Assembly (NCBI GenBank): GCA_965205485.1 | Contig: OZ242180.1 | Span: forward strand, 4,064,001 to 4,128,000 | DNA: 64,000 nt | Source of the DNA: Candidatus Latescibacterota bacterium | Lineage (GTDB): Bacteria; Latescibacterota; UBA2968; GCA-2709665 | Direction: 5' to 3' | In this document: positions 8,663 to 58,272 of the stretch, in pieces | Layout: each line of letters begins with the position of its first letter | How positions within the stretch are numbered: position 1 is the first letter of the stretch | Program-made: the position numbers and the translations under genes | The notes under the pieces: model-generated | Seen by the model: the letters and a program-made list of their open reading frames with translations, nothing else | Database searches by the model: none | Told to the model about the DNA's origin: nothing

Positions 8663-8669
8663 AAACCAA

Positions 8670-14674: not shown

Positions 14675-14691
14675 TTGGAACGGAGGGCAGG

Positions 14692-29561: not shown

Positions 29562-29838
29562 TCCAAAACAGCGTGAGATGAATCTATGTCAATTCCCTAC
29601 TGTACCAGAAGTCGTAAATATAGGTATTTTCCAGGCGCCGGCCAAGCGAAAGACGGGTACCGCCGACCATTCCGATTTCCCGGCGGAATCGACGGACCGC
29701 GCAAACTTCCGGCCGCTGTTGACCCCGGCAGGCAGCTGCCGGACCCGTGAGGATTTCGTGCCGGGCTCTTGACGAAATGTAAAAGATTGCCCATATTTCG
29801 GGCCGGTGGGTATACGAGTCATTCGAATCCATTCCATA

Positions 29839-30000
29839 GAAGTTGTTTTAAAATTACCGGTGAGTTCCCGAGCGCGAGCGAAAAAGTGGCGGTCAAGGCG
29901 GGAAAACCCGCCCATATTTGTCTATACGGGTGGGTTTGACCAACGCCGACCGGCGCTTTTGCAGCCGTGCGAAGACCGCTGTGGATTTTAAAACAGCTTC
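29839..30000 (+). mobile_element. MITE family 1, copy C (shortest)
   Basis: GAAGTTGTTTTAAAATT ... ATTTTAAAACAGCTTC; ATA direct repeat. Confidence 0.85.
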
Positions 30001-30034: not shown

Positions 30035-31177
30035 ATGGCGCTGCAGGAGATCACATTTGCGGATCTGGTGGATGTAGCGGTCGTCGGTGTCCTGTTCTGG
30101 GGCCTGCTGGCCTGGACGCGGAGGATGCACGCGCGAATGTCCCTTATCGGGCTGGGGTTTCTGGGCGCATTCTATCTTCTGGCGCGGCAGTTCGAGTTGC
30201 AGCTGACGGCGTGGATATTCCAGGGTTTTTTCGCGGTGCTGGTTGTGCTGCTTGTCGTTGTGTTTCAGGACGACCTGAGGCGGCTCTTCGAACAGATTGC
30301 CGCACTGGGCCTGGGCAGACGGATATCGCGGCCCCGCGGAGGCAGTCTGGCGGTGCTGGTTCGTGCGATGCATCAGGTGGCGGCGAAGCGGCGGGGCGCC
30401 CTCGTGGTCCTGCCCGGGCGGGAGCCGCTGGACAGGCTCCTGCAGGGCGGGATAGACCTCCAGGCGACCATCAGTGAGGAACTGATCGACAGCCTGTTCG
30501 GCACGTCGTCGGCGGGCCACGACGGGGCCCTGGTGATGAGGGAAGACAGACTGGAACGATTCGCCGTATATCTGCCGCTTTCGGAAAATCGGGCCGAACT
30601 CGGGCCGGGAGGTACCCGCCATGCCGCCGCGCTCGGGCTGGCCGAGCGCAGCGATGCCCTGTGTCTGGTTGTTTCCGAGGAGCGCGGCACCATCGCCGTG
30701 GCGCTTCAGGGGCGACTGGAGGTTGTCAACGACCCTGACGAACTGCTTGCCAGATTGCAGGAACACGCGCAGCACGTGGTCGCCGGCGGACGGAAGAACG
30801 GACGGAGCCGGCTGGTCCGGCGACTTGCGGAAGGGTTGCTCTCATTCGTACTGGCGTTCGGCGCATGGGTGTTCCTGGTGCCCGGCGCGGCGGTCCAGGA
30901 AACGACTTACGAAGTGGCCGTCGGCGTGGAGAATCTGCCGGGCGGCTACGCGCTGAAGGGTGTCATGCCCCCCGTTGTGAACGTGACCGTGAAGGGCCCG
31001 CGTCGCGCCGTGTTGCTGGCGCCCTCGGACGACTTCCAGCTCGTAATCGATGCCAACTACGTGAGGATCGGACGCAGGACCTTCGAGTTCGGCATCGAGT
31101 CGATCAGGCACGGGACGGAGCTGACCGTCGTAAACGTGGAGCCCCGCAAGGTCCGGCTGGATGTACGGAAGGAATAG
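30035..31177 (+). CDS. Membrane diadenylate cyclase (CdaA-type DisA_N) fused to a YbbR-like domain
   Basis: Three N-terminal TMs, 'HDGAL', 'GTRHAAALG', 'VSEERG'; extra TM and YbbR-like C-terminus. Confidence 0.85.
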   Translation: MALQEITFADLVDVAVVGVLFWGLLAWTRRMHARMSLIGLGFLGAFYLLARQFELQLTAWIFQGFFAVLVVLLVVVFQDDLRRLFEQIAALGLGRRISRPRGGSLAVLVRAMHQVAAKRRGALVVLPGREPLDRLLQGGIDLQATISEELIDSLFGTSSAGHDGALVMREDRLERFAVYLPLSENRAELGPGGTRHAAALGLAERSDALCLVVSEERGTIAVALQGRLEVVNDPDELLARLQEHAQHVVAGGRKNGRSRLVRRLAEGLLSFVLAFGAWVFLVPGAAVQETTYEVAVGVENLPGGYALKGVMPPVVNVTVKGPRRAVLLAPSDDFQLVIDANYVRIGRRTFEFGIESIRHGTELTVVNVEPRKVRLDVRKE

Positions 31178-31192
31178 GTCTGGCAACCACCC

Positions 31193-31915
31193 CTACGAAG
31201 ATACCAGCCGCTCCCTGGATTCCATCTTGCGAAGGCCGGCATAGAGCAGCAGACCCGACAGCAGCGCCACCGCCAGGCGATTCAGCAACACCCGGTCGCC
31301 CCACAACGTGTCTTCCATGCCCACCGGTGGATCGAAACTTTCCAGAAAGAGCACGAACGGTGAGTCGGGCATTGACTGCGAGGCTACCAGCGTCAGGCCC
31401 ATCACGCCCGTGGCGAGCATGGCGGCCGCGTTTCCGCTTCGACAGAGAACGGAAAAGTAAAACGTGAGCCCCGCGGCGAAGCACGCCGGCAGAAAGGCGT
31501 TCAACCCGCCCCGGAGGATCGGCAGTTCCGCGAAGAAATAGTAGGCGACAACCGTCATACCCATAAGCGTTCCCGCAAGCACCAGATAGACGCCCACCAT
31601 TCGAATCGTCCAGATCCGGTAGTGCGACGAGGTTGTGCTGAACAACGTCTCCAGTGTATTCCTGTCACGTTCGCCCGCGACGAGATCCATCGTCAGATAG
31701 ATGGCCAGTGCGATGCCGGGAATCTCAACCAGAACATGGAGCGCCTTCGATACGCCGAATCCTTCGTCGGGACGCCACACCGCGAATGCGTACATGGCGG
31801 CGTAATAGACCAGGATGCCCATGGCCATGAATATCAGCTTCCTGTGAAAGATGATCCTGCAGCTCAGCCGGTAGAGCCGCCACGTGGTCAACAGCAGTTC
31901 CCGCCAGTTCAGCAC
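31193..31915 (-). CDS. ABC-2 type transporter permease
   Basis: About 6 TM helices and 'GERDRNTLETLF'; GTG start overlaps the upstream stop. Confidence 0.8.
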   Translation of the reverse strand: MLNWRELLLTTWRLYRLSCRIIFHRKLIFMAMGILVYYAAMYAFAVWRPDEGFGVSKALHVLVEIPGIALAIYLTMDLVAGERDRNTLETLFSTTSSHYRIWTIRMVGVYLVLAGTLMGMTVVAYYFFAELPILRGGLNAFLPACFAAGLTFYFSVLCRSGNAAAMLATGVMGLTLVASQSMPDSPFVLFLESFDPPVGMEDTLWGDRVLLNRLAVALLSGLLLYAGLRKMESRERLVSS

Positions 31916-34900
31916 GGCTGACCCTCCCCTCCGCCAAGCAGGTAAAGATACGCGTCTTCCAGGGTTGGATCCACGCGCTGCGCGCCGATGCCGGCCGGCG
32001 CGTGCTCCGACAGGAAACGCGTCCGGACGCCGCCGGAGGTTCGCTGGTGCGATATGAGCTTCAGTTGCTTTTCCATTTCGGAAAAGCGCCGGTCGGGAAC
32101 CACCGCGTCCCACACCCGGCCCGCCGCCAGGTTTCTCATCTCCGCCGGCGTTCCCGTATACAGTAGACGCCCCTGGTCCAGAACCGCCAGCCGATTGCAG
32201 CTTCCCGAGATATCTTCCACGATATGCGTGGAAAAAATCACAATGCGCTCCTGACTTAACCTGGCGAGCAGGTTGCGAAACCGGATGCGCTCCAGCGGAT
32301 CCAGCCCCGCGGTGGGCTCGTCCACGACGACGATCAGCGGGGCGTGCAGGAGCGTCTGCGCGATGCCGAGGCGCTGTTTCATTCCGCCTGAAAAAGAACC
32401 GATCGGATCGTCCCTTCGTTCGATCAGATTGACCTGCTCCAGAGATTCGATCACCCGGGTCTCGCGGGTCTTCCGGTCCTTGAAGCCCTCGAGCAGCGCT
32501 CTGTACTCCAGAAATTCGAATGCCGAAAGGTGTCCGTAGTTGCCGAAGTGCTGCGGCAGGTACCCGATCAGTCCGTGGATCGTACCCTTGTTCAGGATGT
32601 TTCTACCGTCGATCAGGATGGACCCGTAGCTGGGTTCGAGCACCCTGCAGAGAATACGCATCAACGTTGTCTTGCCGGCGCCGTTCGGACCCAGCAGACC
32701 GAACATCCCCCTGCCGATTTCCAGGTTGACGCCCGCCAGCGCTCGAAATTCCGGCCGGGGAATGCCTATAAGTGGAACGGCCGACGCCAATCGATAAAAC
32801 CACCGTCGCGGCCGCGCAAAACGTCCTGGCAGGTTATCGGGACTGATCTCGCCCGTCCGCACCCTGTCGGCGAGCCGGCGTAACAGGCGATAGACGGCCC
32901 AGATCCCGAACGAGGCAAGTGTGACCGATAGCAGGTCCAGCCGCCAGTGTACGTAGGCGACAAATGCCAGCGGGAGAGCGGCTTTGTGCAGCAGTTTGAC
33001 GATGCGGGCGAACGGCGCCGGCGGATGCCATTGGCGGAGTTCTCCGATACATCGACCCACGTGGGATACCATAAAGGCCAACGCCAGCACGTGCAGATAG
33101 ATCCAGATTTCGTCTTCGAAATAGGTCGTGAACAACGACAACAGCGCGAGCATTGGCAGTTTCCAGAAGAGGGCATCGCGAACCGCCCTGCGGTCCCGCG
33201 GATCCAGGCCCGTTTTCATCAGCCGCCCCCGCCGGCGCTCGTCACGCGCCCACTCCCGCACAAAGCGCCCGGGCGCGCCATAAACCTTGGTGAGGTTCCT
33301 CAGCTGAATGGCGTGCACGGCGCTCGACACGCGGCGGGCTGCGACTCGCGCGTGATGTACCCGTTGAACGATCCACACTGCTGCCAGAAATGAGCCCCAG
33401 ATGGGCAATATGGACAGGCTCGTCCAGAAAATGCTCTCATATCGGACGTAAATGCCATATCCGGCCGCGGCGGTCGCCAGCAGTGAGAACGTGACGCCGG
33501 CAAACCCGATGCCGTCCAGCCAGTCACCGATCTGATCCAGCCCCATATATACAACAGGAATCAGAATCAATGTGGACATCATGGAAACCGACAGACCTCC
33601 CAGCACCGTGATTGCAAACGGCGGCCAGATCTCAAAATCGCCGCCGAATTCCAGCGCGAGCGGGAGAACGCCGAGCAGCGTCGTGGCCGTCGTCATGAGG
33701 ATGGGTCGCAGGCGGGACCTCGCTGCGGTCAGTACAGCGCGTTCGCGGCGGTACCCGAAACGGGACCTGAGTACACCGACCGCGTCGATCAGGATGATCC
33801 CGTTGTTCACGGCAATACCCAGCAGGACGATGAAGCCCAGGAGCGCCATGGGACCCTCCTGCTGGCTGAGGCCCGTTCCTGACATCATCAGCGCCCAGCA
33901 GGAGCCGATGGCGGCGGGCGGAAGCGTACACAGGATGATGATCGGAGACGAGAGCGATTCAAAAAGCGACGCCAGAATCATATAGATCAGAACCGCGGCT
34001 ATTGCCATCATCCAATAGTAAATCATCTCCTCATGCGCCTCGATGATTTCGATTGAATAACCCTCTGGCAGCACCATATCCTGCAGTGTCGTGCGTACGA
34101 CCCGCCTCGCGAGTTCCAGCCGTGGCTGTGAATCCAGGACTTCCGAAGGAAACCTGTAGGAAACCACGAGCCGGCGGGCCTGGTCGGTCCGCAGCAGGCT
34201 GCTTCTGCCCTCGTCAGTCCGGACCCGCGCCACCTCGTCCAGAGGTACATACTGGCCGGCCTGGTTCAGAATACGCGTCCGACGGAATTCAGCCAGCCCG
34301 TAACGGTCGCGGTCCTCCTCTTCGATTGTTCGCACTTCAATGGGTATCTCGGTCGCGTCGGGCAGCAGAAACGGAACGGTCGTACGGAATCCGTCCCATC
34401 GGGTGTCGCCCATTGCGGCGAGGACCTCCTGCGCGCCGAGCCGCCGGTCGAACAGGGCGGCCGCATCGGGCAAAACCTGAACCTCGGGCGAACTTCGTTC
34501 GGCGTCGGCACGTACACTGTTGGCATCCACTTCCTCGAGTTCCTCGAGCCTGTACGACACGTCGTTCGCAATCATCGTCAGTATCGTAAAGTCATATCCG
34601 CGTATCACAACCTGCTCGTTCGGAGCGGTCCCGGTCAGATCGAAGCCACCCGAGCTGCGTCTCCGGCGTTGACCTATCCCCTGCCCGCGGCCGCCCCTCC
34701 CCGCCCTGGACCTGCGTTCGTATCCCACGACGCCACCCTGTACATTCTGAAGCTTCTCGTCCAGCAGTTCCTTGATTTCATCCAGCGAGATTCCGCCGGG
34801 CCGGTCGGAACGGTTGAGCAACATGACGGTTACGTCGGCCTCGGCCTCCCGGACAGACGTCGTAAACCGGTCCAGTCCGGACACGTCCCGAACGGATTCC

Positions 34901-36621
34901 TCCACCTGTTTCACCACGTCATCCGTGGCATCCAGCGTGGACCCTTCCGGCAGATTCACGTAGACCGTAAAGCGCGTCTCTTCCCGCCTTACCTGCTGTT
35001 GAAGCAGGTAGAAGAAGGCCAGAACGAGCGTCAGCAGGAGGGCGCCGCCCACCGCCAGGACCACCGATGTGCGGTGGCGCAAGGCGGCCTTCAGCAGCAG
35101 GGTATACCGTTCCAGCAGACCGCGGACGTCCGGCGGCTTCCGGACCTCACGGCTCAGTGCGCGGACGGCAAGCGCGGGAACCAGTGTAAGCGCAACCAGC
35201 AGTGACGCCAGAAGCGGAAACACCATGGACAACGCGAGTTCGCGCAGCAGGTCCCGTGCGTCGCTTTCGATAAACAGAACGGGCAGGAATGCGGTTACCG
35301 TGGTTGCCGTTGCCGCGACCACGGCGCGCCCGACTTCGGAAGCCCCGTCACGTGCAGCGTGAGCCGGCGATTTGCCTCGCTCGTAGTGTTTGAAGATATT
35401 CTCCATCACCACGATGCCGTTGTCCGCGAGCATTCCCATCGCGAGGGCAAGGCCGCAGAGCGACAGCACGTTGACGGACAGCCCGCCCGCGTACATAAGA
35501 TTGAAGGTCATCAGAAGTGAAATCGGAATGGCCAGCAGGAGAACCGAAACAAAGCGAAGGTTACGAAGAAACAGAAAGAGTACGATCAGACCGAGTACGG
35601 CGCCGACGACGGCCGCCTGCTTCAGGGTGGAGAGCGCCCCGGTCATCAGGTCGGCCTGGGAGGAACTCACGCCCAGTTCCACACCTTCACTTTCCAGGTC
35701 CCGGTTCAGGCGCCCGACGGTGGCTTCCACCGCAGCGGCCACTTCGATCAGATTCGCTTCGTCATCCTTCTGGATCCGTACGCCCACCGACGGTTTGCCA
35801 TTGACTCTGTGCCGGTCGGCCTGCTCCTGAAGGCCGTGCCCGATTCGGGAGATGTCGCCCAGCCGGAGCGTGCCGTCTTCGTTCACGACGAGATCGCGAA
35901 TCTGTCGCAGGTCCGTGAACTGTCCCTGAATACTCACCGAATAGGCCCTGTTCCCGTCGAATACCCGGCCCAGGTACTCACGCCTCCGGTTATGGCTGTT
36001 CAGTCGCGTCCGTACCTGTCCCGCCGAAAGGCCGTGCGCCTCCAGCAGGATCGGATCCAGGACGATTTCCACGGCGCTGCGGCGCCCGCCCAATACGGAC
36101 ACGTTCACGACGCCGTCGACAGACTCCAGTTCGGGCCGGATCTTTTCCTCCGTGAACTCACGCAACGGGTTCAGGTCCCAGTCGGCAAGCACGTGAAGCT
36201 CCATAATACTGCTGCTGAGGTCTGTCGAATCGAACCTCCGTACATCGGTCTGCGTGCGCTCGGGCAACGCAGGCTGCAATCGGTTCAGGTTGCTCTGCAG
36301 CTGAAGAAGGGCGAATTTCATATCCACGTCGGGGGCGTAGGATATCCTGATACCGCCCCTGTTGGCCGCCGCGAACGATTCCATCTCCTGAACGCCGTCG
36401 AGTTTTCCAATCTCTCCTTCCACCGGAATCAGCAGGTCTCTCTCAACCTGCTCCGGAGAGGCCCCCTGCAGCGTCAGCGTGACAAACACCTCAGGAAAGA
36501 TCAGCTCGGGAAAGAGCTGAATCGGAAGCCTCGTCCACGACACGACGCCCAATATGGCGAATGCAGCGAAGAACATGGACGTGGTCACCGGCCGCCGGAC
36601 CGCAAGATCGGGGAGAATCAC
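31909..36621 (-). CDS. RND (AcrB-type) permease fused to an ABC ATPase
   Basis: RND motifs 'GMLADNGIVVMEN', 'GIAVNNGII', 'RLRPILMT', followed in frame by GPNGAGKTT, FSGGMKQR, VVVDEPTAGLDP and STH. Confidence 0.92.
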   Translation of the reverse strand: MILPDLAVRRPVTTSMFFAAFAILGVVSWTRLPIQLFPELIFPEVFVTLTLQGASPEQVERDLLIPVEGEIGKLDGVQEMESFAAANRGGIRISYAPDVDMKFALLQLQSNLNRLQPALPERTQTDVRRFDSTDLSSSIMELHVLADWDLNPLREFTEEKIRPELESVDGVVNVSVLGGRRSAVEIVLDPILLEAHGLSAGQVRTRLNSHNRRREYLGRVFDGNRAYSVSIQGQFTDLRQIRDLVVNEDGTLRLGDISRIGHGLQEQADRHRVNGKPSVGVRIQKDDEANLIEVAAAVEATVGRLNRDLESEGVELGVSSSQADLMTGALSTLKQAAVVGAVLGLIVLFLFLRNLRFVSVLLLAIPISLLMTFNLMYAGGLSVNVLSLCGLALAMGMLADNGIVVMENIFKHYERGKSPAHAARDGASEVGRAVVAATATTVTAFLPVLFIESDARDLLRELALSMVFPLLASLLVALTLVPALAVRALSREVRKPPDVRGLLERYTLLLKAALRHRTSVVLAVGGALLLTLVLAFFYLLQQQVRREETRFTVYVNLPEGSTLDATDDVVKQVEESVRDVSGLDRFTTSVREAEADVTVMLLNRSDRPGGISLDEIKELLDEKLQNVQGGVVGYERRSRAGRGGRGQGIGQRRRRSSGGFDLTGTAPNEQVVIRGYDFTILTMIANDVSYRLEELEEVDANSVRADAERSSPEVQVLPDAAALFDRRLGAQEVLAAMGDTRWDGFRTTVPFLLPDATEIPIEVRTIEEEDRDRYGLAEFRRTRILNQAGQYVPLDEVARVRTDEGRSSLLRTDQARRLVVSYRFPSEVLDSQPRLELARRVVRTTLQDMVLPEGYSIEIIEAHEEMIYYWMMAIAAVLIYMILASLFESLSSPIIILCTLPPAAIGSCWALMMSGTGLSQQEGPMALLGFIVLLGIAVNNGIILIDAVGVLRSRFGYRRERAVLTAARSRLRPILMTTATTLLGVLPLALEFGGDFEIWPPFAITVLGGLSVSMMSTLILIPVVYMGLDQIGDWLDGIGFAGVTFSLLATAAAGYGIYVRYESIFWTSLSILPIWGSFLAAVWIVQRVHHARVAARRVSSAVHAIQLRNLTKVYGAPGRFVREWARDERRRGRLMKTGLDPRDRRAVRDALFWKLPMLALLSLFTTYFEDEIWIYLHVLALAFMVSHVGRCIGELRQWHPPAPFARIVKLLHKAALPLAFVAYVHWRLDLLSVTLASFGIWAVYRLLRRLADRVRTGEISPDNLPGRFARPRRWFYRLASAVPLIGIPRPEFRALAGVNLEIGRGMFGLLGPNGAGKTTLMRILCRVLEPSYGSILIDGRNILNKGTIHGLIGYLPQHFGNYGHLSAFEFLEYRALLEGFKDRKTRETRVIESLEQVNLIERRDDPIGSFSGGMKQRLGIAQTLLHAPLIVVVDEPTAGLDPLERIRFRNLLARLSQERIVIFSTHIVEDISGSCNRLAVLDQGRLLYTGTPAEMRNLAAGRVWDAVVPDRRFSEMEKQLKLISHQRTSGGVRTRFLSEHAPAGIGAQRVDPTLEDAYLYLLGGGEGQPC

Positions 36622-39600
36622 GCCGCACTCCTGTTTCTGAGCCGCTCGATCAGTTCGTAAACAACCGGAATCACCACCAGGGTCATCAACGTGGACGTGA
36701 CCAATCCGCCGATGACCGCCACCGCCATTGGCGCCCGCAGACGCGCGCCTTCACCCACACCCACCGCCATGGGCAACAGCGCGAGAATGGTTGTGGCGCT
36801 GGTCATCAGGATCGGACGGAGCCGATCCTGCGCACCCTGGAGTACGGCCGTTCTGACGTCGGACGCATTTCGCCGCAGCTGGTTGATGTGGTCCACCAGA
36901 ATGATGGCGTCGTTGACGGCGATGCCGCCCAGCATAATCGCTCCGATGAATGCCATCACGCCGAATGCCTCACCCAGACCCCAGAATGCGAACACCACCC
37001 CGATGCCGGCCAACGGCACTGTCAGCATGACGGTAAACGGATGCAGCAAAGACTCGAAGAGCGACGCCATGACCATGTAAACGAGCACGACGGACAACAG
37101 CAGGGCGAACTGCAGGCCTCCGAATGATTCGGCCCGCTCACGTTCCTCTCCGGTGATGGTTACACGATATCCGTGAGGAATGGCCATCTGCCCCACCGCC
37201 TGCCTGATCTGCGCCGCCGCCTGGCTCAAGACCATGCCTTCGGCCAGAAACGCGGATACCCTCCCCACCCTGCGCTGCCCGTCACGCAGGATTTCTCTTG
37301 GACCCTGGACCACGCGAAGATCGGCGAGATCTCCCAGCGTGAGCATCGCGCCGTCCGGACCGTCGATTCTGGCGTGTTCCAGCTCACGAAGGTCCACGTC
37401 TGCGAAGCCCACCCGGATGGTTCGCTCGCGCTGGTCTTTGGAGAGTTCGCCGGCTTCCTCCCCGCCCAGTCTGCGCTCGAGTTCACGCACGAGGTTCTGC
37501 GAGGTAAGGCCGAACGCCGCGGTGACATCCGGCCGCAACACGACGTCCAATTCGGGCTGGCCATCCTGAAAGCTCGTTCGGACATTATACACCGTCGACA
37601 ACACGTCCATGCGCTGTTTCAGATCTGCCGTCAGTTCCCGAAGCAGTACCAGGTTCTCGCCACTCACCTCCACCTGTACCGGTGCGGCGCCTCCACGTAC
37701 AAGTCCTTCCAACGCAGATTTATGGAGTCGATAGTTAACTTTGATATTCGGCACGTCCAGGAGGGCCGCATCCAGTGCGGCGGTGAGTTCGGTGACACCA
37801 CGACGGCCCGCTTGCGGGCCCAGGACGACCGTCAGTTCGGCCCGGTTCGGACCCGTGGGCTCTCCCACGGCCGTGAACCGGTTCGGATCTGTTCCCACCC
37901 GCAGGTAGATGTGCAGGGCTTCCTCTCCGGCAACCGCCTGCGCAATAGCCGCGACGCGTCTCCCCACCCTGTCTGTTGACTCGAGTCTCGTGCCCTCCGG
38001 CATCGCGAGGTCCACGTGGAGTACACCCTCGTCTTCCGTGGGAATGAACGACGTATGGAGGGACGTGGCCATATGGAAGGCCGCCACAAGGCAGGCGATC
38101 AGTACCGCTATCGTGCGGCCCTTGCGGTTGAGCGACGCATCCAGAAACCGTCTGAACGTCCGCGCCCCGGCGACCCCCGTGGACCCGCGCGGATACCGCC
38201 TGAACAGCCGTGCGGTCATCATGGGGACCACCGTCATCGCCACGGCGAGAGATGAAACCAGTGAAAACGCCACGGTCCAGGCCTGTTCCTTGAAGAGTTC
38301 GCCCGCCAGCCCTTGAAGATACACGATGGGAAGAAACACGGACACCGTCGTCAGCGTGGAAGCCAGTATCGCGACCCCGACCTCGCCGGCGCCCTTGACG
38401 GAGGCTGCTGCGGCTGTTTCACCACTTTCGATATGCCGGTAGATGTTCTCAATTACGACAATGGCGTTATCCACCAGCATGCCGGCGCCGAGTGCGAGAC
38501 CGCCAAGGGTCATTACGTTCAACGTCAACCCCTGGAAATACATCAGCGTGAACGTGGCGAGAACGGAAATCGGAATGGCAAGGCCAATCACCAGCGTTGC
38601 AGTCCATTGCCGGAGCGCGGCAAGCAGCACGCCCACGGCCAGAAACGCGCCGATGACAGCCGCCTCTTCAACTTCGCTTACCGCGCGTTCGACAAAGCGT
38701 GCCTGGTTTTCCACCACCGTAAACCGGATGCCGGCCAGATCGGCTTCCAGGCTCCCCAGTTCCTGCAGTACCCCGTTCACCACTGAAGAGGTATTCGCGC
38801 CGGCTTCCTTGTAGACCGAAAGTCCTACGCACTCCATGCCGTCCAGACGGACGATGGTTTCCCGTTCCTTATACTGGAGGGCCACGGTACCCACGTCGCT
38901 GACCGTGACCGGCACGCGCTGAGTCGATGCGTTTTCTCCGCCGTTCGAAGATTCGCCGCTGCGTTCGCCGACAACCAGGTCGTTCACGTCCGCCAGGTCG
39001 GTCAGCCGTCCCAGGCCCTTTACCAGATAGGATTGCTGGCCGTCCTTCAGCGTTCCTCCGGAGACATCCGAATTCGCTTCACGAATCCGCGAGACCACCG
39101 TTGCGGAATTGACGCCGAACGCTTGCAGGAGATAGGAATCCAGTGTGACGCGGATCTCCTTTTCGGCTCCCCCTTCGATTTCAACCGAAGCCACCCCCGA
39201 CAGCCCCTCGAGCCTGGGCCGGATGATCGTCTCCACACTGCCCAGCAATTCATCTGGATCCTGCCAGTCCGCCCCCGAAACAGCCAGACGCATCACCGGC
39301 AATGCCTGCGGGTCTTCCTGCGTAACGTCCAGACTCGTGATATCGGGGTCCGATGCGTACCGCGCCACTTTCTTCTGCACGTCGAGAACCGCGAAATCCA
39401 TGTCCGCATCCCACTCGAACTCCGCGATCACCACGGCCTGCCCGGAGCGGGACACGGAATGTACGCGTTTCACGTGCCGTACCGTACCGATGTCCCCTTC
39501 CAGGCGCTGCGCGTACCGTTCCTCCATCTCCCGGGGCGTCTTTCCGGGAAAACGCAGGTCGACGGTGATCACGGGAGAACGCAGGTCGGGCAACAGGTCC

Positions 39601-39701
39601 ACATCCAGCCGGTCCAGCGAGATCCAGCCGAGGAGCGCTACCGCCAGCGTCGCCATCGCGACCGTCACGGGATATTTCGTGGAAAATTCGGGCAATGACA
39701 T
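36618..39701 (-). CDS. RND (AcrB/AcrD/AcrF family) permease
   Basis: 'GMLVDNAIVVIEN', 'GIAVNDAII', 'RLRPILMT', 'GGLVTST'. Confidence 0.95.
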   Translation of the reverse strand: MSLPEFSTKYPVTVAMATLAVALLGWISLDRLDVDLLPDLRSPVITVDLRFPGKTPREMEERYAQRLEGDIGTVRHVKRVHSVSRSGQAVVIAEFEWDADMDFAVLDVQKKVARYASDPDITSLDVTQEDPQALPVMRLAVSGADWQDPDELLGSVETIIRPRLEGLSGVASVEIEGGAEKEIRVTLDSYLLQAFGVNSATVVSRIREANSDVSGGTLKDGQQSYLVKGLGRLTDLADVNDLVVGERSGESSNGGENASTQRVPVTVSDVGTVALQYKERETIVRLDGMECVGLSVYKEAGANTSSVVNGVLQELGSLEADLAGIRFTVVENQARFVERAVSEVEEAAVIGAFLAVGVLLAALRQWTATLVIGLAIPISVLATFTLMYFQGLTLNVMTLGGLALGAGMLVDNAIVVIENIYRHIESGETAAAASVKGAGEVGVAILASTLTTVSVFLPIVYLQGLAGELFKEQAWTVAFSLVSSLAVAMTVVPMMTARLFRRYPRGSTGVAGARTFRRFLDASLNRKGRTIAVLIACLVAAFHMATSLHTSFIPTEDEGVLHVDLAMPEGTRLESTDRVGRRVAAIAQAVAGEEALHIYLRVGTDPNRFTAVGEPTGPNRAELTVVLGPQAGRRGVTELTAALDAALLDVPNIKVNYRLHKSALEGLVRGGAAPVQVEVSGENLVLLRELTADLKQRMDVLSTVYNVRTSFQDGQPELDVVLRPDVTAAFGLTSQNLVRELERRLGGEEAGELSKDQRERTIRVGFADVDLRELEHARIDGPDGAMLTLGDLADLRVVQGPREILRDGQRRVGRVSAFLAEGMVLSQAAAQIRQAVGQMAIPHGYRVTITGEERERAESFGGLQFALLLSVVLVYMVMASLFESLLHPFTVMLTVPLAGIGVVFAFWGLGEAFGVMAFIGAIMLGGIAVNDAIILVDHINQLRRNASDVRTAVLQGAQDRLRPILMTSATTILALLPMAVGVGEGARLRAPMAVAVIGGLVTSTLMTLVVIPVVYELIERLRNRSAA

Positions 39702-39715
39702 CGTATCGGCCCTTA

Positions 39716-39927
39716 GAAGCTGCCTTAAAATTCCCAGCGGTCTTCGCACGGCTGCAAAAGCGCCGGTCGGCGTTGGTCAAACCCACCCAAGAGTGGCGAG
39801 GGGCGCGCAGCCACGATACATTGGAGATGGGTGGATTTTCCCGTCGGCGCTGCGCGCCCCTCGCGCCTCATAACCGGCACTTTTTCGCTCGCGCTCGGGA
39901 ACTCACCGGTAATTTTAAGACAGCTTC
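39716..39927 (-). mobile_element. MITE family 1, copy D
   Basis: GAAGCTGCCTTAAAATT ... AATTTTAAGACAGCTTC; TTA direct repeat. Confidence 0.85.
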
Positions 39928-40198
39928 TTATTGAATGAGCGTTGGTTGCTTTGGCTCAGTAACCGTGATTAACATGAATGACCTCGATCGAAGGAGCAAA
40001 CTCCCGCAAGCAAATGTGACACCGCCCGGTAACGAGGTTGGTCGGGGGTGAAAAAACCCCTCCGGAAGGCCCACACGCTGTCCCTGGGCCCCAGAGGGGT
40101 CCAATCGAGAAAGCTCACGATGATTCGTTCGCTGCGGACGGTATCTCTCGAGTCGGCAATGGACTGTCAGGACGACGGACGTTCGTAGCGCGTATTCA

Positions 40199-41281
40199 TC
40201 ACTGCCGCCCCGCCGCGTCCTCCCCGGTTACCCGCACGCGCGTACGGGACCGCAGCGTCTCGTAGTTGCTGGTAATGAGGCGCTCGCCCGGTTCAAGCCC
40301 TTCGAGAATCTCGACCTGCTCCGGTCCCTCCAATCCCAGCCTTACGTCGCGCATCTGCGCCCGCCCCTCCTCCTCGACGAACACCACCTTGCGATTCTGG
40401 CGCGTCAGGACGAAACGTCGCGGGATCACCACCGCATCCTCGTGAGACTCTGTGACAATCTCTGCCTTCACGAACATCCCCGGCCGTAACATCAGGTTAG
40501 GATTTTTCACCGCCCCCACCACCCGGAACGTACGCGTCGCCGGATCGATGGCCGGGTCGACCACCTTGACGGTCCCCAGAAACCGTCGGTTGGGCAATGC
40601 GTAGTTCTCCACGCGCAAGACCTGCCCCGGTGAAACGGATACAATATATGCGTTCGGAACCTTGAGATCGACGAGTACCTGGTTGTAGTCCATCACCGTT
40701 GCAATGGTCGTGCGGGCCTCCACCATCGTACCCTCGGTAATATCGGCCAATCCTGTCAGAAAGCCGGTGATTGGCGTCCGAATCGTCGTCTTGGCGATCT
40801 GAACGAGAGCGTCTTCATAGTTGGATTCGGCCTCGGCGAGGGCCCGGCGCGCTTCGTCCAGATCCTTCACCGTGCTCAGTTTACGGTCGACAAGAACTTC
40901 CTGCTCGCTCAATGTTTGCTTCGCGACGGCGCGCGCAAGATCGCGGGATTCCAGACGGGCGTTTACGACAAGCTCCTTGTTCACAAGCCGGGCGATTACC
41001 TGGTTCCGGGTCACCCGCATTCCCTCCGTCGCCCGTCCTCCGACGCCCCGCGCCACATATTGGATAATTCCCTCGACCTCGGTCTGAATACGGGCTTCTC
41101 TGAAGGGCCGGAGCGTGCCCGTGGCCGCCACCGTCGCCTCCATGGTGTCCAGATGCACCGCCTGAACCGTTACGGGGACGGTCAGATCCACGGACCGCTG
41201 TTCGGTCTGCCCGCCGCATCCGGCCAGAATGGCAACAGCGGTGAATACCATACCATAACCGATCAGGACTCTTTTGTTCAA
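40199..41281 (-). CDS. RND membrane fusion protein (periplasmic adaptor), lipoprotein
   Basis: Lipobox LAGC, 'IRTPITG', 'DPATRTF.V', 'LRPGMF', 'GLEPGE'. Confidence 0.93.
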   Translation of the reverse strand: MNKRVLIGYGMVFTAVAILAGCGGQTEQRSVDLTVPVTVQAVHLDTMEATVAATGTLRPFREARIQTEVEGIIQYVARGVGGRATEGMRVTRNQVIARLVNKELVVNARLESRDLARAVAKQTLSEQEVLVDRKLSTVKDLDEARRALAEAESNYEDALVQIAKTTIRTPITGFLTGLADITEGTMVEARTTIATVMDYNQVLVDLKVPNAYIVSVSPGQVLRVENYALPNRRFLGTVKVVDPAIDPATRTFRVVGAVKNPNLMLRPGMFVKAEIVTESHEDAVVIPRRFVLTRQNRKVVFVEEEGRAQMRDVRLGLEGPEQVEILEGLEPGERLITSNYETLRSRTRVRVTGEDAAGRQ

Positions 41282-41325
41282 GTTTCACCTCATAAAAGGG
41301 TTATAACTCGCTGTTCACCATTGGA

Positions 41326-44300
41326 TTACCAACCTCTTCCACGCGTTTGTCCTCCGCCGCTCCGGCTGCCGCCCCCTCGCCCCCCGCGGTCGCCGCCCCG
41401 ACGGCCCCGACCGAAGTTCCACGTCGGAAGATCTTCTTCATATACCTCTTCCGGGTGGTCGGGATCTACGTACCTCCAGCGCACCGCATCGGCATAGAGG
41501 CGCCCGTTTGCCCGGTCGGACAGTTCGACACGGGCCAGCTCACCTCCCTCGAAACGGTACCGACCCATCACGTTCCAGCCGCCCTTGAGCTTGTCCGCTT
41601 CGACCGCCAGTGTATCCACCTCGCCGCCGTGGCCCACCGCCAGACTGAATTCCGTGGCCATACGCAGACGCCTGGCGAACCGGGGTTGAACGAAATAATA
41701 GTAGACGTCGTAATCCCCGCTGTGCGGCAAGCGGGCCGTCCAGACCGCCGGTTGCGCGCCGTCGCCGGGTTTCTTCCACCTGTAGTTGGTTTCATACCGG
41801 CCGAAAGAAAATGGCATCTGTCGTTCCTGCCAGTTGTCCCCTTTCAACTGCGGTCGGAGATAACGCCGCACCCTCCGGACCGGCATTTCGAAGCCTTCGT
41901 CGTCATTGTCCACGATGATCTCGGTCAATCCCGTCTCGTCTGGGGCGACCTCTCTCACGTAGGTCGTGGCGGAACCGTCCATCGGCTGCTCGGGTATGCG
42001 CAGCGGCGCCATCAGGACGCGGCGGTTTCGTGCAAAAAACGGCTCGACGCTGATTCTCGAAGGCCGTTCCCAAAGGATCAAGCCCACCTCCACTTCCTGC
42101 CCGCCTTCTATCTCAACGCCCTTCAACGCCTCGTCCTCGCTCCCCATCGCTCGAATCTGGACGAATCCGCGCCCCGGCTCTCCGTTTCGGATCCGCACGA
42201 CGACCTGATACACCATCATCCCCCACCCATCGTCCACTTTGTACGCCTTTGCCCTGGTGAGCGTATATCCCGGTACCTGGGTGCCGTGCAGCCAGTCTCT
42301 GACGAGGCGATGCAGGTTGGGTCGTTCCGCCCGGCTGGAGGAATCTCCGACAGCCGCACGTTCGAACGACTCGAAGTTGACTGCCGCGTGCCGGTTTGAC
42401 TCCTCGAATCCGCTGACCACGTCTCTGAACGTTTCGTCACCCACCACGGCCTGCATCATCCCGAACATGGAGGCGCCCTTGGCGTCGACGACCGCCCGGT
42501 AGAGTTCCGCGTCGGCATCCGGATCCAGCTCAGCAAAGGAACGCTGACGCATCTTTGACGTTACCGTATCCCACGAGACGCCTCGCGCGCCCCTGTTGCG
42601 CCGGAAAAGACCCCGGAACCTGCCCCGCCGCGAATACAGGCTTTGCTGCAGGCTGGTCTCGAGATGTTGTTGAATATGGACGGGCATTCCGCGCTTGAGC
42701 AGGGAGTAGTGTTCGCCTTCGAAGCCCTGGTTGAAGGACCAGAGGTGCGCCACCGGACTCCGGTAGATGCCGCTCTGAGACGATTCCCGCGCAAGAAACG
42801 TGCGCAGAACCGCGCTGACCAGCAGATCCCGCTTGATCCTCGCGGGGTCGTCGTTTCGTCGCCGCCGCCGCTGCATCCATTTCAGGCGCCGCTGCAGATT
42901 GAGCCGCATCAGCACGTCCTCTTCCAGCATCAGCACGCCCGGCTGCACGAGTCCACCGGCTTCCTCCCATCCGTCGTAATACCATTGTACCTGGAATGGC
43001 ACTTCCACAACCGACAGGCGTTCGTAGGGATAGGCCAGGCCGGTTTCCTGTTCAACGCTGTCCAGGATTTCGCCCAGCGTTTCGAGGGCGTCGTCCCTGG
43101 CGTCTTCGAAGAAGGTGACCTGTCTGGCATGGGCCGGATGAACGTAAACGGCGCATTGGATATTATGGATTTCGGCCTGGAAGACACGGTAGACGCCGGC
43201 GTTGAGCGAGAAAAAAGGTACAGGGCTTCGCGCCTTCCACGAATGGACCTCCCGATCGCCCTCCGCCTTCCGGCTGACCGGCATCCCCTGGGTTATAACC
43301 TCAAGTCCCGCGGGAAGAGAGATATCCAGATCCGCGGTGGCGAAGGACACGGGTCTGCCATCCTCGTGTCCGTAGTCAACGCCCGGCGAAGGATACCACC
43401 TGCTGCGGGGTGGGAGGAATACGGAATTCCCGCGAATCCAGGCGGTCAGATCGCCCTTTCTGCCCGGCCCCGCGCGCCGCTTCTGCAGACGCCTCGCATC
43501 CGGATGGCGCTTCAGATCGAATCCGCTGAGGTCAATCGAACCGTCGTATACGAACGCCAGCGTCGCCGTGCTGTCAGGCTGGAGCGTTCGGGCGACCCGC
43601 ACGACGGCGGTTTCTCGCCGCCAGTTCACAGCAGCGTCCACTCCGTTTTGCACATTCACGGATCGCAGTCTCAAACCCGGGTTGAGACTGAAAACCAGCG
43701 TGTCGAGCGGAACGGAATGAGGGTTGGAAACGCGCAAAACCGCAGTGCCCCGAAGGGGCGTCCGGTCTGACGCAAGGTCCAGGTCGAGCGTGTAATGCGT
43801 TACCGCCACGGTTGGCTGTCCGGCGTATCTCTCATGAACTTCCAGCTGCGCTGTCCTGTATGCGATGTCCGAGGCGTCGCTGTTTTCAATATACAGGTAG
43901 AGGCCCAGCGCGGCGACGAAACCACCGGCAGTCATACACCGGCCGAACCTGCGCCAGGCCCGGGACTGAGGCAGCCGCGGATACCGGTCGATTGACAATC
44001 CGAAGAAAAACAGGGCAAGCAAGGTGTAGAAGAACCGGAGTTCCACGACGCGCCGAATATCGCCGAGACCGAGCATATCCGAGTAGAACACCGGGGCGAA
44101 GAATGCGCCGAAGTCGTAGACGCCGCCGTATCGGCGTCCGAGGAACAGGAGGACGATCAGCACGTACGCGATGGTCAGCACGGTCACCGCGGCCTGCCGG
44201 CGCAGCACCGCCCCGAGGAAAAACGTAAGGGCGGACATGTAAATCAGCCCCGGCAGGTTCAGCAGAAGCAGGTACGTCAGATAGGGTCGAATCGTAAACG

Positions 44301-44724
44301 GGGCGCCCGTAATGCTGATTTTGGCCGCCTGCACGCCAAGGCTGAGTACCAGCACGATCAGGCTCAGCGTTATCAGGGCGCCCAGTACCCCCAGGTATTT
44401 GCCCATGACCAGTTCGGCGGTAGACAGCGGCCGCGCCGCAACCACCTCGTAGATTCCCGCACGTTCATCCGCCGCCCTGAAATCTCCCACAATAAACGCG
44501 ATCACCACGGTCTGGAGGAGACTGTAGACGAAAAAGGGCATATAGGCGCCGATTCCGCTCACAGATTCGAACTCGACGCCTCTGGATTCGGCGATCGCCA
44601 CGCCGATACCCAGGACAACGGGAATGAGCACGCCGATACCGCCCAGGATGCGAAACCGGATCGTACGCATCAGCATTTTGCGCTCGTATCTGGCTACAGA
44701 CAATATGGTGAAGACCGTATTCAT
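41326..44724 (-). CDS. ABC-2 permease fused to an M1-aminopeptidase-like domain and a golvesin/CBM-like C-terminal domain
   Basis: N-terminal TMs with 'RPLS..ELVMGKYLG'; M1-like 'YPYERLSVVEVP'; C-terminal 'GW..MG.Y.F...YADAVRW'; RGG tail. Confidence 0.75.
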   Translation of the reverse strand: MNTVFTILSVARYERKMLMRTIRFRILGGIGVLIPVVLGIGVAIAESRGVEFESVSGIGAYMPFFVYSLLQTVVIAFIVGDFRAADERAGIYEVVAARPLSTAELVMGKYLGVLGALITLSLIVLVLSLGVQAAKISITGAPFTIRPYLTYLLLLNLPGLIYMSALTFFLGAVLRRQAAVTVLTIAYVLIVLLFLGRRYGGVYDFGAFFAPVFYSDMLGLGDIRRVVELRFFYTLLALFFFGLSIDRYPRLPQSRAWRRFGRCMTAGGFVAALGLYLYIENSDASDIAYRTAQLEVHERYAGQPTVAVTHYTLDLDLASDRTPLRGTAVLRVSNPHSVPLDTLVFSLNPGLRLRSVNVQNGVDAAVNWRRETAVVRVARTLQPDSTATLAFVYDGSIDLSGFDLKRHPDARRLQKRRAGPGRKGDLTAWIRGNSVFLPPRSRWYPSPGVDYGHEDGRPVSFATADLDISLPAGLEVITQGMPVSRKAEGDREVHSWKARSPVPFFSLNAGVYRVFQAEIHNIQCAVYVHPAHARQVTFFEDARDDALETLGEILDSVEQETGLAYPYERLSVVEVPFQVQWYYDGWEEAGGLVQPGVLMLEEDVLMRLNLQRRLKWMQRRRRRNDDPARIKRDLLVSAVLRTFLARESSQSGIYRSPVAHLWSFNQGFEGEHYSLLKRGMPVHIQQHLETSLQQSLYSRRGRFRGLFRRNRGARGVSWDTVTSKMRQRSFAELDPDADAELYRAVVDAKGASMFGMMQAVVGDETFRDVVSGFEESNRHAAVNFESFERAAVGDSSSRAERPNLHRLVRDWLHGTQVPGYTLTRAKAYKVDDGWGMMVYQVVVRIRNGEPGRGFVQIRAMGSEDEALKGVEIEGGQEVEVGLILWERPSRISVEPFFARNRRVLMAPLRIPEQPMDGSATTYVREVAPDETGLTEIIVDNDDEGFEMPVRRVRRYLRPQLKGDNWQERQMPFSFGRYETNYRWKKPGDGAQPAVWTARLPHSGDYDVYYYFVQPRFARRLRMATEFSLAVGHGGEVDTLAVEADKLKGGWNVMGRYRFEGGELARVELSDRANGRLYADAVRWRYVDPDHPEEVYEEDLPTWNFGRGRRGGDRGGRGGGSRSGGGQTRGRGW

Positions 44725-45626
44725 GATCCTTGCACCCCTGCGTCCCGTTCCGGATTCTCCATACCCATGAAATACACGTACGCGTCTTCGAGGTTCGGCG
44801 GAACCGGTTCGGAGTTTGCCGGCGGCTGGCCATCGCCCACAAATCTGAGGTCCATCAGGCCGCCGTCCACCGAGATCGTCACGACCAGAAACTTCCGGGA
44901 TATCGATTCGAACTCGGCGTCGTCCGCCTGCAGGCGCCACGTCTTTCCATCGGCGCGATCGACCAGTGCCCCGGGCGATCCCCTGTAGACGATCCGTCCT
45001 GCATTCAACACCGCCAGATCATCGCAGGTACTTGAAATATCGCCCACGATGTGTGTCGAAATCAGGATGGCCCGGTCTCGACTCAATTGGGCAAGGATTC
45101 CCCTGAAACGAATGCGTTCTTCCGGATCGAGTCCCACGGTGGGCTCATCCACAACCAGGATTTCCGGATCGCCCACAATGGCCTGTGCAATCCCGAGGCG
45201 CCGCATCATCCCCCCGGAAAATGTGCCGGTCCGGCGGTCCCGCACGTCGTAGAGCCCCACGTTCTCCAGCGCATCGCGCACGCGCCCTTTTCTGCCGTTC
45301 CGTCGCCGTCCGGCCGCCAGCCGGTCCATATAGTCCAGAAACTCCCACGCCGTCAGCTGTGGATACGAACCGAAGTGCTGGGGAAGATATCCCAGACTGC
45401 GACGAACTTCGGAGCGATTCCGCTGCAGGTCCCACGCTCCCACGCTTACATGGCCGGACGTTGGCGCCATCTGAGTTGAGAGAATCTTGATGAGCGTGGT
45501 TTTTCCCGCGCCGTTCGGTCCAAGCAGCCCGAAGGTCCCCTTGCCGATCTCGAGGTCCACGTTGTCCAGAGCGGGCACGGTCCCCTTTGGATAGATTTTC
45601 GTCAATCCGGTCGCAACGATACGCAT
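44721..45626 (-). CDS. ABC transporter ATP-binding protein
   Basis: GPNGAGKTT, FSGGM, VVDEPTVGLDP, STH, 'PNLEDAY'. Confidence 0.96.
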   Translation of the reverse strand: MRIVATGLTKIYPKGTVPALDNVDLEIGKGTFGLLGPNGAGKTTLIKILSTQMAPTSGHVSVGAWDLQRNRSEVRRSLGYLPQHFGSYPQLTAWEFLDYMDRLAAGRRRNGRKGRVRDALENVGLYDVRDRRTGTFSGGMMRRLGIAQAIVGDPEILVVDEPTVGLDPEERIRFRGILAQLSRDRAILISTHIVGDISSTCDDLAVLNAGRIVYRGSPGALVDRADGKTWRLQADDAEFESISRKFLVVTISVDGGLMDLRFVGDGQPPANSEPVPPNLEDAYVYFMGMENPERDAGVQGS

Positions 45627-45639
45627 TGCCAGCCCCTTG

Positions 45640-45826
45640 GAAGTTGTTTTAAAATTACCGGCGAGTTCCCGAGCGCGAGCGAAAAAGTGGCGGTCAAGGG
45701 GGAAAATCCGCCCAATTTTAATGTATCGTGGCTGCGCGCCCCTCGCCACTCTTGGGTGGATTTGACCAACGCCGACCGGCGCTTTTGCAGCCGTGCGAAG
45801 ACCGCTGGCAATTTTCAAACAGCCCC
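45640..45826 (+). mobile_element. MITE family 1, copy E (right TIR degenerate)
   Basis: GAAGTTGTTTTAAAATT ... AATTTTCAAACAGCCCC; internal sequence shared with copies B and D. Confidence 0.8.
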
Positions 45827-45943
45827 TTATCCGTGTTCCGGGGGAAAACCGTACACTGTGCATTAGACCGGTCAGCGGCGAAGATCGTTCCGCAAGGATT
45901 CGCTGGGGATGCGTGGGGAACCGCCCATTTGCGGCCGATGCAT

Positions 45944-47191: not shown

Positions 47192-47265
47192 CAGTGAACT
47201 CTCCTTGTGCCGGCACCCTTCGTGCGCAGCCGGAAAGACCGTGAACCGACGGGATCGGTGAAGGC

Positions 47266-48603: not shown

Positions 48604-48647
48604 GGTTGCCTCATATCTACAACGCCTGCGTTCACGCGTCTAAAACG

Positions 48648-50248: not shown

Positions 50249-50263
50249 GGACTCGAGGGCTCC

Positions 50264-51331: not shown

Positions 51332-51364
51332 CAGAATCGTTCCTTCGGTTTTCCCGACTGATTA

Positions 51365-58074: not shown

Positions 58075-58087
58075 TGTCTTCTCCTTA

Positions 58088-58272
58088 GAAGTTGTTTTAA
58101 AATTCCCGGTGAGTCCCGAGCGCGAGCGAAAACGTGTCGGTCACGGCGGGCAAATTCGCCTAAGAGAGGCGAGCAAGCGCAGCCTCGACCTCTCGAAACG
58201 GGTGGATTTGCCCAACGCAGACCGACGCTTTTGCAGCCGCGCGAAGACCGCTGGGGGTTTTAAGACAGCTTC
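58088..58272 (+). mobile_element. MITE family 1, copy F
   Basis: GAAGTTGTTTTAAAATT ... TTTTAAGACAGCTTC; TTA direct repeat, with the right TTA being the fdhD stop codon. Confidence 0.85.

Follow-up and report, generated by a model that had tools for sequence, protein, structure and literature searches.

Resistance-nodulation-division (RND) superfamily pumps are normally proton-driven, and RND pumps and ATP-binding cassette (ABC) exporters are treated as alternative inner-membrane engines of tripartite systems. Here we describe a six-gene cluster from a Candidatus Latescibacterota bacterium (contig OZ242180.1) in which the two are covalently joined in a single protein that is kept across several phyla. 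The cluster occupies positions 31193-45626 of the 64-kb stretch of DNA that was analyzed (the window, whose numbering is used throughout; the host genome is designated G000), and all six genes lie on the minus strand (Table 1). An earlier interpretation made from the letters alone (the sequence-only reading) had given their order as ABC ATPase, large permease (PermM1), membrane fusion protein (MFP), RND (RND-1), a second RND fused to a nucleotide-binding domain (NBD; RND-2::NBD2), and small permease (Perm2). This order was found again, no internal stops were seen when the open reading frames (ORFs) were re-read, and the reported gene overlaps are present (ATGA at 44724-44721, GTGA at 36621-36618 and GTGCTGA at 31915-31909). 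The ATPase and RND-1 most likely start at the ATG codons at 45626 and 39701, in agreement with relatives; longer ORFs with GTG starts extend into dispersed copies of an inverted-repeat element, about 215 bp long.

Table 1. Features of the transporter cluster (window coordinates)
Feature	Coordinates	Strand	Description
Free ABC ATPase (NBD1)	44721..45626	-	301 aa, DrrA/NosF-like, C-terminal extension, motifs intact
Large permease PermM1	41326..44724	-	1132 aa, four-part domain layout
RND periplasmic adaptor (MFP)	40199..41281	-	360 aa; TIGR01730 above cut-off
Terminator-like hairpin with U run	40051..40102	-	Between MFP and RND-1
MITE-like inverted-repeat element	39714..39930	.	Directly before the RND-1 ribosome-binding site
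RND-1	36618..39701	-	1027 aa, COG0841/HAE1-like; PF00873 E 1.6e-221
RND-2::NBD2 fusion	31909..36621	-	1570 aa
RND moiety of fusion	33541..36609	-	Residues 5-1027
Extra helix pair TM13-TM14	33331..33504	-	Residues 1040-1097; predicted from hydropathy and model helices
NBD2 strand beta-1 and A-loop Tyr1114	33280..33312	-	Residues 1104-1114
Insert between NBD2 beta-1 and beta-2	32749..33279	-	Residues 1115-1291
Remainder of NBD2	31930..32748	-	Residues 1292-1564: Walker A, Q-loop, signature, Walker B, H-loop, C-terminal domain
Small ABC-2-like permease Perm2	31193..31915	-	240 aa
Second MITE-like copy	45635..45828	.	Directly upstream of the ATPase start

Reality and distribution of the fusion

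Pfam places ACR_tran (PF00873) over residues 5-1027 of the 1570-aa protein (E 1.5e-184) and ABC_tran (PF00005) over residues 1297-1438 (E 4.8e-26). The homologue set consisted of the 120 proteins listed for query residues 1030-1570 of the fusion: PF00873 is found in all 120, at identities down to about 40%, and 119 carry PF00005 too, which is the two-domain architecture that the sequence-only reading had described. The same reading would have been abandoned had homologues consistently been split into separate genes or had the six genes not occurred together; we observed neither. Among 80 loci (the best 80 of a genome scan, to which all counts over 80 loci refer), transmembrane helix (TM) 12 of the RND and the NBD signature share one frame in 76, and the order and co-occurrence of the genes are kept across loci. 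Three of the exceptions (L093, L098 and L113) are frameshifted and the fourth (L125) stops at a contig end. The junction proved continuous in a contig from an independent run of another study (X5), which spans positions 31100-37000 with 181 substitutions and 0 gaps; over 31192-37000, a contig of run X6 differs by 383 substitutions and by two pairs of gaps that compensate each other.

Within the phylum, 84 of 168 genomes were found to have the fusion linker. In the order of Prolixibacter bellariivorans, 301 genomes were drawn and 41 had it, with a frame of 1536 aa or longer in 36. In 37 of 41 related genomes almost all of the C-terminal half is matched, and in 35 of these the open frame is at least 1575 aa long. 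The 80 loci are named as Latescibacterota, Gemmatimonadota, Acidobacteriota, Bacteroidota, Calditrichaceae, Chlorobiota/Melioribacteraceae, Krumholzibacteriota and KSB1, and cultured carriers include Prolixibacter bellariivorans ATCC BAA-1284, P. denitrificans DSM 27267, Marinifilum breve JC075 and Labilibaculum filiforme 59.16B. The relatives named nearest are mostly Latescibacterota. The genomes counted are kin, and co-occurrence counts are descriptive. On these sequence comparisons, the RND::NBD fusion is real and old.

In a quick tree, the 39 fused NBDs form one group (support of 96 in the SH-like approximate likelihood ratio test, SH-aLRT), and the subgroups within it parallel those seen among the free operon ATPases. 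The two NBDs of the cluster, called paralogous in the sequence-only reading, are reciprocal best matches in G000, with 45% identity against 37% for the next. The outgroup of the tree left out the nearest own-genome ABC-2 ATPases, and the sister relationship of the NBDs is not drawn from it. A search of shorter proteins gave five matches, none of them a clean stand-alone NBD with the insert described below. Two unusual sequences turned up in passing. P0268 joins half of Perm2 to TM13-NBD and was considered as evidence for subunit pairing, then rejected as a probable misassembly (a single sequence on a 2.7-kb contig, 1 of 7999 candidates); P0232, a sequence without genomic context, comprises an RND and TM13-14 and ends at beta-1.

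Anatomy of the join

The RND had been described as followed by the NBD. Both are indeed complete and in frame, but six further helices lie between them, four of which are inserted inside the NBD itself. In a structure model of residues 1000-1570 (pLDDT 91, pTM 0.78), two helices come after RND TM12, then a strand (1104-1114); five long helices and one shorter helix separate it from the next strand, at residue 1292. Residues 1104-1114 are assigned to NBD strand 1 because it is there that solved NBDs begin to align, their residue 2 falling on model residue 103-104. Among structural matches of NBD2, TM_1403 ranks first (Z 28.9, root mean square deviation (rmsd) 3.2, 263 residues aligned).

The stretch between beta-1 and beta-2 is 162-260 residues long (median 178) in all 120 aligned homologues, and only a handful in the free ATPase. 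It opens with a conserved basic amphipathic helix, continues with four hydrophobic helices (1144-1255) that are hydrophobic in the family average as well, and closes with an amphipathic tail. W1124 and R1129 of the opening helix are conserved in 117/119 and 109/119 rows, and K1112 and Y1114 just ahead of it in 119/119 and 118/119; the identity of the insert is 30-60% across phyla. In the model it leads via TM13-14 to RND TM12. Hydropathy suggests that the insert is located in the membrane; since its four helices and TM13-14 make an even number, the NBD would stay cytoplasmic. As for the fold of the insert, whole-model structure searches returned NBD matches, and Atlas gave no usable match.

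Both NBDs are catalytically complete by their motifs. Those of NBD2, read from the outset as intact, are invariant in 108/108 full-length homologues (Lys1317 of Walker A, Gln1357 of the Q-loop, the signature S-G-G-M, D1434-E1435 of Walker B, and His1466), and free ATPase orthologues keep Walker A, the H-loop and an xSGGM signature in 62/62.

The two permeases

PermM1 was modeled with a pLDDT of 80.9, and fold matches were scored by VIA and Foldseek. Four parts were recognized: a type V (ABC-2) transmembrane domain (TMD; residues 1-252), a seventh helix (255-300), an M1-aminopeptidase fold (299-912) and a CBM35-like/Golvesin_C domain (932-1087). The TMD has the N-terminal elbow helix, the six TM helices and the re-entrant segment between TM5 and TM6 by which type V is defined (PMC8386196). 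Its best match is NosY (Z 18.7), ahead of a PmtCD chain (Z 15.9), ABCG2 (Z 15.5) and CcmB (Z 12.7). The M1 fold (domains I-III) resembles ERAP1 (Z 22.3, rmsd 4.8, 470 residues aligned) and IRAP (Foldseek E 3e-19), and the CBM35-like domain a xanthan-lyase C-domain (Z 18.9). Because the HExxH zinc motif is present in 0 of 61 orthologues, we regard the M1 domain as a pseudo-peptidase and most likely a binding domain; an HExxH string, its position not checked, occurs in 1 of 19 extra PermM1 copies. From the seven helices of the model, the M1 domain would be periplasmic.

Perm2 gave only weak matches to PF12698 and PF12679, below cut-off (E 0.004-0.005), and none of the six cluster proteins matched MacB_PCD or FtsX.

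The RND subunits and their proton-relay positions

Both RNDs align with ACR_tran over 1017-1018 of its 1021 positions and score 616-738 bits, against 47 bits at best with MMPL. In AcrB, D407, D408, K940 and R971 are required, with T978 associated, and substitution of D408 or K940 abolishes efflux (PMC8277102). We mapped AcrB numbering through an MdtB alignment and the spacing of the residues in AcrB. RND-1 has D411-N412 in TM4, N930-D931 in TM10 and R960 in TM11, and the DN/ND combination is present in 94 of 102 orthologues. The fused RND has D400-N401 in TM4, N939-N940 in TM10, R970 and T977; DN/NN is found in 101/105, D400 and T977 are kept in 108/108 and R970 in 107/108. Its proton relay is thus incomplete: the equivalents of D407, R971 and T978 are kept, and those of D408 and K940 are Asn. 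As a control, the 11 other RNDs of G000 were compared, none of which carries an NBD, and five of them are DN/NN as well; it is therefore a subfamily trait and not a sign of ATP replacing the gradient. The fixed residue difference between the subunits suggests that RND-1 and RND-2 have unequal roles, possibly in a heteromer like MdtB2C1, the stoichiometry stated in PMC7015380.

Gene order, co-occurrence and the outer-membrane exit

The near-fixed order of the operon is ATPase, PermM1, (TolC), MFP, RND, RND::ATPase, Perm2. Perm2 lies directly 3' of the fusion in 75 of the 80 loci, the other five ending at or near a contig end. TolC sits between PermM1 and MFP in 26 loci (the intervening gene is PF02321 in 12 of 12 scanned), a different TolC stands behind Perm2 in seven (six plus one truncated locus), and 26 show the order PermM1-MFP-RND-fusion-Perm2 without TolC. 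Among the 30 genomes reached through these loci, PermM1 is found in all, the ATPase directly upstream in 29 (the other meets a contig end) and TolC directly downstream in 27. Since TolC is placed either inside the operon or, differently, behind Perm2, an outer-membrane exit appears to have been kept or regained. The absence of TolC from the cluster, pointed out in the sequence-only reading, thus holds for this locus and is lineage-specific rather than general. G000 has eight genes of the TolC (outer-membrane efflux protein) family, all outside the cluster. With the in-operon TolC as query no orthologue was found in this genome (best E 1.9e-5, 22%); the gene at C1:5092912-5094252 is 44-48% identical to the TolC that other lineages place behind Perm2, and is for that reason a candidate partner in trans. 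The MFP has a lipobox-like LAGC at residues 19-22, as read from its sequence.

In this phylum 80 of the 168 genomes have Perm2, always as a single copy and always among the 84 linker-positive genomes, and it was found in none of the 84 linker-negative ones; the four genomes with the linker in which no Perm2 was found are 84-88% complete. PermM1 is present in 83 genomes, of which 81 are shared, and the other two hold operon pieces at contig ends.

Separate duplication of the ATPase-PermM1 half

The fusion and Perm2 are single, and PermM1 has up to four matches per genome. We examined 19 extra PermM1 copies, judging neighbors within the stretch fetched: none had Perm2 or an RND beside it (0/19). 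Seven copies at five loci (L179, L180, L185, L187 and L188) adjoin an operon-type ATPase, and the rest do not. At least four changes of label separate operon from extra copies in a FastTree phylogeny. Because the halves duplicate separately, two half-units are supported, a variable one of free ATPase and PermM1 and a fixed one of fusion and Perm2; this pattern suggests that PermM1 has the free ATPase as its partner, and Perm2 the fused one. PermM1 paralogues standing alone or in tandem were also noted at unrelated sites (L172-L176, L179-L186, L189 and L190), 25-50% identical to operon copies (72% for L189); those of L172 and L174 sit between kdsD-like and lptB-like genes, as judged by eye.

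In one genus, g6, an extra ATPase+PermM1 or PermM1 lies inside three of five radical S-adenosylmethionine (SAM) clusters for ribosomally synthesized and post-translationally modified peptides (RiPPs). The radical SAM/SPASM maturase family is found in 4 of 21 g6 genomes, the same four that have an extra PermM1; matches to the maturase and to the protease mentioned below are under the named cut-offs, except for the SPASM domain. L187 and L188 share the order maturase, Cys-rich precursor, ATPase, PermM1, glycosyltransferase, unknown gene, membrane HExxH protease, glycosyltransferase, and in L193 a stop-interrupted PermM1 adjoins the maturase. The four extra g6 copies form one clade nested within the g6 operon copies, so this recruitment was one event. 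It shows that recruitment of the ATPase-PermM1 half-unit to peptide biosynthesis can happen, a weak hint of peptide cargo by which the cargo of the main operon is not identified.

The g6 clusters themselves (L187:92-13052, L188:3127-16000, L193:1126-12597, L201:7504-16898 and L202:3292-12561) represent an apparently undescribed RiPP family. The precursors that they encode have a leader in common, and their Cys/Asp-rich cores vary (L188:4987-5235 on the plus strand, L187:11014-11250 minus, L201:9337-9630 plus, L202:10450-10701 minus). GT4 glycosyltransferases and a daptide-like HExxH membrane protease are encoded there too.

Repeats, signals and neighboring genes

The element before RND-1 resembles a miniature inverted-repeat transposable element (MITE) and is missing from 7/7 aligned relatives; by this comparison, it is outside the conserved system. 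Members of the family are about 215 bp long, have inverted repeats at their ends and are flanked by what look like 3-bp target duplications (TTA/TGA/TAA-like); there are 114 loci in G000, 97 of at least 150 bp. Copies in the window lie at 8669-8879, 14461-14675, 29838-30000, 39714-39930, 45640-45823 and 58087-58273. No match was found in 16 loci of close relatives, and no long element sharing its ends lies within 3 kb.

The hairpin between MFP and RND-1 has a folding energy of -35.8 kcal/mol (z -2.5; equalled by 2 of 200 shuffles) and is kept in the genus, being present in 8/8 aligned spacers. The terminator scan did not list it, and promoter and terminator scans performed at chance level; the Rfam and plasmid searches gave no match.

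Comparison of the genes flanking the main operon and the relocated ATPases revealed no common theme. Convergent with the cluster is a diadenylate cyclase gene (30035-31177, plus strand; CdaA_N and DAC, with a weak C-terminal YbbR match). Upstream, a catabolic-looking run on the minus strand (45944-53617) begins with a RidA/YjgF-like gene and continues with ORFs that we take, by eye, to be FAD-oxidoreductase-, thiamine-enzyme-, homocysteine-methyltransferase- and dimethylformamidase-like. Elsewhere in the window, a 1180-aa protein (25327-28869, minus) has Pfam matches solely to a C-terminal FG-GAP/PQQ beta-propeller and none in its first 800 residues; a 223-aa ORF (24532-25203, plus), read by eye, has a helix-turn-helix-like start and a long coiled-coil-like tail; and an ORF contains five tandem 24-bp repeats (11093-11236). 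The GC skew changes sign near 26 kb, possibly marking the replication origin or terminus of this single-contig genome.

A proposed two-stage exporter and its alternatives

The reading we favor, to which we give a little under an even chance, is that a type V ABC transporter loads cargo into a tethered RND-MFP-TolC pump, the whole forming a single two-stage trans-envelope exporter. One heterodimeric ABC transporter would be built from two halves, free ATPase plus PermM1 and fused ATPase plus Perm2, and the covalent link together with the six extra membrane helices would keep it against an RND-1/RND-2 heteromer. ATP turnover would move or present a cargo, probably a peptide, a modified peptide or an amphiphile, on the periplasmic side; there it may be selected or retained by the dead M1 domain and the carbohydrate-binding-like domain. 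The RND, possibly still coupled to an ion gradient, would accept the cargo and expel it via the MFP and a TolC, the latter encoded either within the operon or in trans. The sequence-only reading had already proposed an ABC heterodimer tethered to an RND/MFP complex; this fits the anatomy, and the dual-energy or hand-off action of that proposal we infer. The intact fusion and its single clade, the co-occurrence of Perm2 and PermM1, the kept TolC exit, the catalytic NBDs and the type V TMD all point toward the two-stage exporter, and so do the position of the insert, which is that of the Wzt gate helix, the copies in RiPP clusters and the DrrABC-MmpL7 precedent. Several observations weigh against it. 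Both RNDs are without the equivalents of AcrB D408 and K940; 26 of the 80 loci have no nearby TolC; the flanking genes are not conserved; the operon ATPase is located elsewhere in three genomes (G022, G026 and G034); and the fusion is split within the insert in G081 (the L093 locus), though Perm2 is also damaged there. The RiPP link amounts to one duplication in one genus, is missing for 16 of the 19 extra PermM1 copies, and fails in two of the five clusters (L201 and L202), where no PermM1 was found in the 20 kb fetched. Finally, the best match of the PermM1 TMD is NosY, and CcmB matches too; these two are transducers rather than exporters.

This last point leads to the main rival, which we consider somewhat unlikely: the ABC unit may be a mechanical transducer or switch, as NosDFY and CcmAB are, and not a translocator through which cargo passes. 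The dead peptidase would bind a periplasmic or membrane-bound ligand, and ATP-driven NBD closure would pull the insert helices and so gate or load the RND. The TMD matches just named and the presence of NosF among the top NBD matches agree with this, as do the insertion at the mobile beta1-beta2 loop, leading through TM13-14 to RND TM12, and the contrast between up to four PermM1 copies and a single fusion and Perm2, as expected of exchangeable receptors; moreover, SUR1 is tabulated as an ABC regulatory module (PMC8386196). However, the fold search also returns true exporters (PmtCD and ABCG2), and an ATPase-PermM1 copy inside peptide biosynthesis clusters looks more like export. It is decidedly unlikely that ATP replaces the ion gradient and the RNDs serve as a driven conduit or scaffold. 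The single TM4 Asp and missing TM10 Lys of both RNDs favor this, and MmpL7, reported to be without a relay, has been proposed as a scaffold for DrrABC (PMC11539658); yet the argument from a degenerate relay to ATP power is weakened by the same DN/NN residues in RNDs without an NBD, D400, R970 and T977 are nearly or wholly invariant, and the second TM10 acid of RND-1 is kept in 94/102. More doubtful still is the view that the operon encodes two functionally independent transporters, the fusion merely fixing their stoichiometry or location. The ATPase-PermM1 half can move, be inverted as a pair (L076 and L079) and duplicate alone, and the terminator-like hairpin divides the operon in this genus, but Perm2 was never found without the fusion, no clean stand-alone NBD with insert was recovered, and an insert threaded into the NBD and conserved across phyla is elaborate for a tether. 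An assembly error or a lost stop codon, for which we found no support although three of the 80 loci are frameshifted between the RND and NBD motifs, is refuted by the two-domain homologues, the long frames of 35 of 41 relatives and the gapless X5 contig, and retains virtually no probability.

The two-stage exporter has a broader implication, which we hold a shade more tentatively: primary (ATP-driven) and secondary (ion-gradient-driven) transporters would work in series within one complex, as a new class of trans-envelope machine in which ATP-driven motion reaches the RND via helices in the gate loop of the ATPase, and exchangeable dead-peptidase permeases choose the cargo, modified peptides included.

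Comparison with known systems

The individual parts of this system come from known families; as an assembly they correspond to no system described so far, and the architecture is new. Databases label the fusion solely by its two domains. A search of listings and abstracts of mainly open-access literature found no description of an RND::NBD fusion, and the term 'RND' is absent from the main text of a review of ABC nanomachines (PMC10094684). No architecture was found to match a membrane bundle inside an ABC nucleotide-binding domain. As cultured, non-pathogenic carriers exist, the system is directly testable, and it offers a test case for how an RND pump that faces the periplasm receives its substrate from a flippase or exporter of the inner membrane.

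Individual features have parallels elsewhere. Uncharacterized proteins annotated 'ABC-2 permease / M1 aminopeptidase' also fuse an ABC-2 TMD to an M1 fold (feature score 0.88, a lead only); PF01433 is present in 75-100% of the members of their clusters, whereas PermM1 lacks HExxH and adds Golvesin_C/CBM. In NosDFY, NosY is the best match of the PermM1 TMD, and NosF matches NBD2 with the C-terminal domain included (Z 25.3); in place of NosD, the periplasmic part of our cluster is an M1 fold fused to the permease, and NosDFY is not known to include an RND, MFP or TolC. In Wzm-Wzt and TarGH, too, NBD strands 1 and 2 are separated by an extension that follows the A-loop Tyr and opens with a basic helix (PMC6379404). 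The Wzt gate helix is described there as cytosolic, placed at the TMD interface, proposed as the site of substrate entry and shifting by about 8 A on ATP binding. It is one short helix, against about 178 residues and four hydrophobic helices here, and the resemblance is one of position alone. MacAB-TolC and type I secretion also combine an ABC ATPase, an MFP and TolC in one trans-envelope system, but in these the ABC protein is itself the inner-membrane pump, whereas here the MFP is of the RND type and the PermM1 TMD of type V; the MacB TMD is a four-helix type VII (PMC8386196). MdtABC-TolC and MuxABC-OpmB share with our cluster one MFP and two tandem RND genes (PMC7015380), and MdtB is the best solved sequence match (E 2.7e-84). 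However, they have no ABC parts, MdtB has DD in TM4 and Lys in TM10 in place of DN and NN/ND, and the RNDs here score 331-399 bits with the MdtB and MdtC equivalog models, against cut-offs of 1584 and 1774.

The closest functional precedent is DrrABC-MmpL7 of the Mycobacterium tuberculosis complex, where both DrrABC and MmpL7 are required for export of phthiocerol dimycocerosates (PDIM), and where a joint assembly and a scaffold role have been proposed with 'yet no direct evidence' (PMC11539658). It, too, combines a type V ABC transporter, made up of two different permeases and a DrrA-type ATPase, with an RND-superfamily protein, and the closest solved homologue of DrrA named in that paper is TM_1403, which also ranks first among the structural matches of NBD2. 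DrrABC-MmpL7 consists of separate polypeptides with one ATPase gene and an MmpL-type RND, is described there with no MFP or TolC named, and has neither a membrane insert in the NBD nor a pseudo-peptidase domain. Unlike it, our cluster has RNDs that are not of the MmpL type, and its operon, with flanks that vary, does not lie in a lipid biosynthesis cluster. It thereby provides a covalently joined test case for whether an ABC transporter can drive or gate an RND, as proposed for DrrABC-MmpL7.

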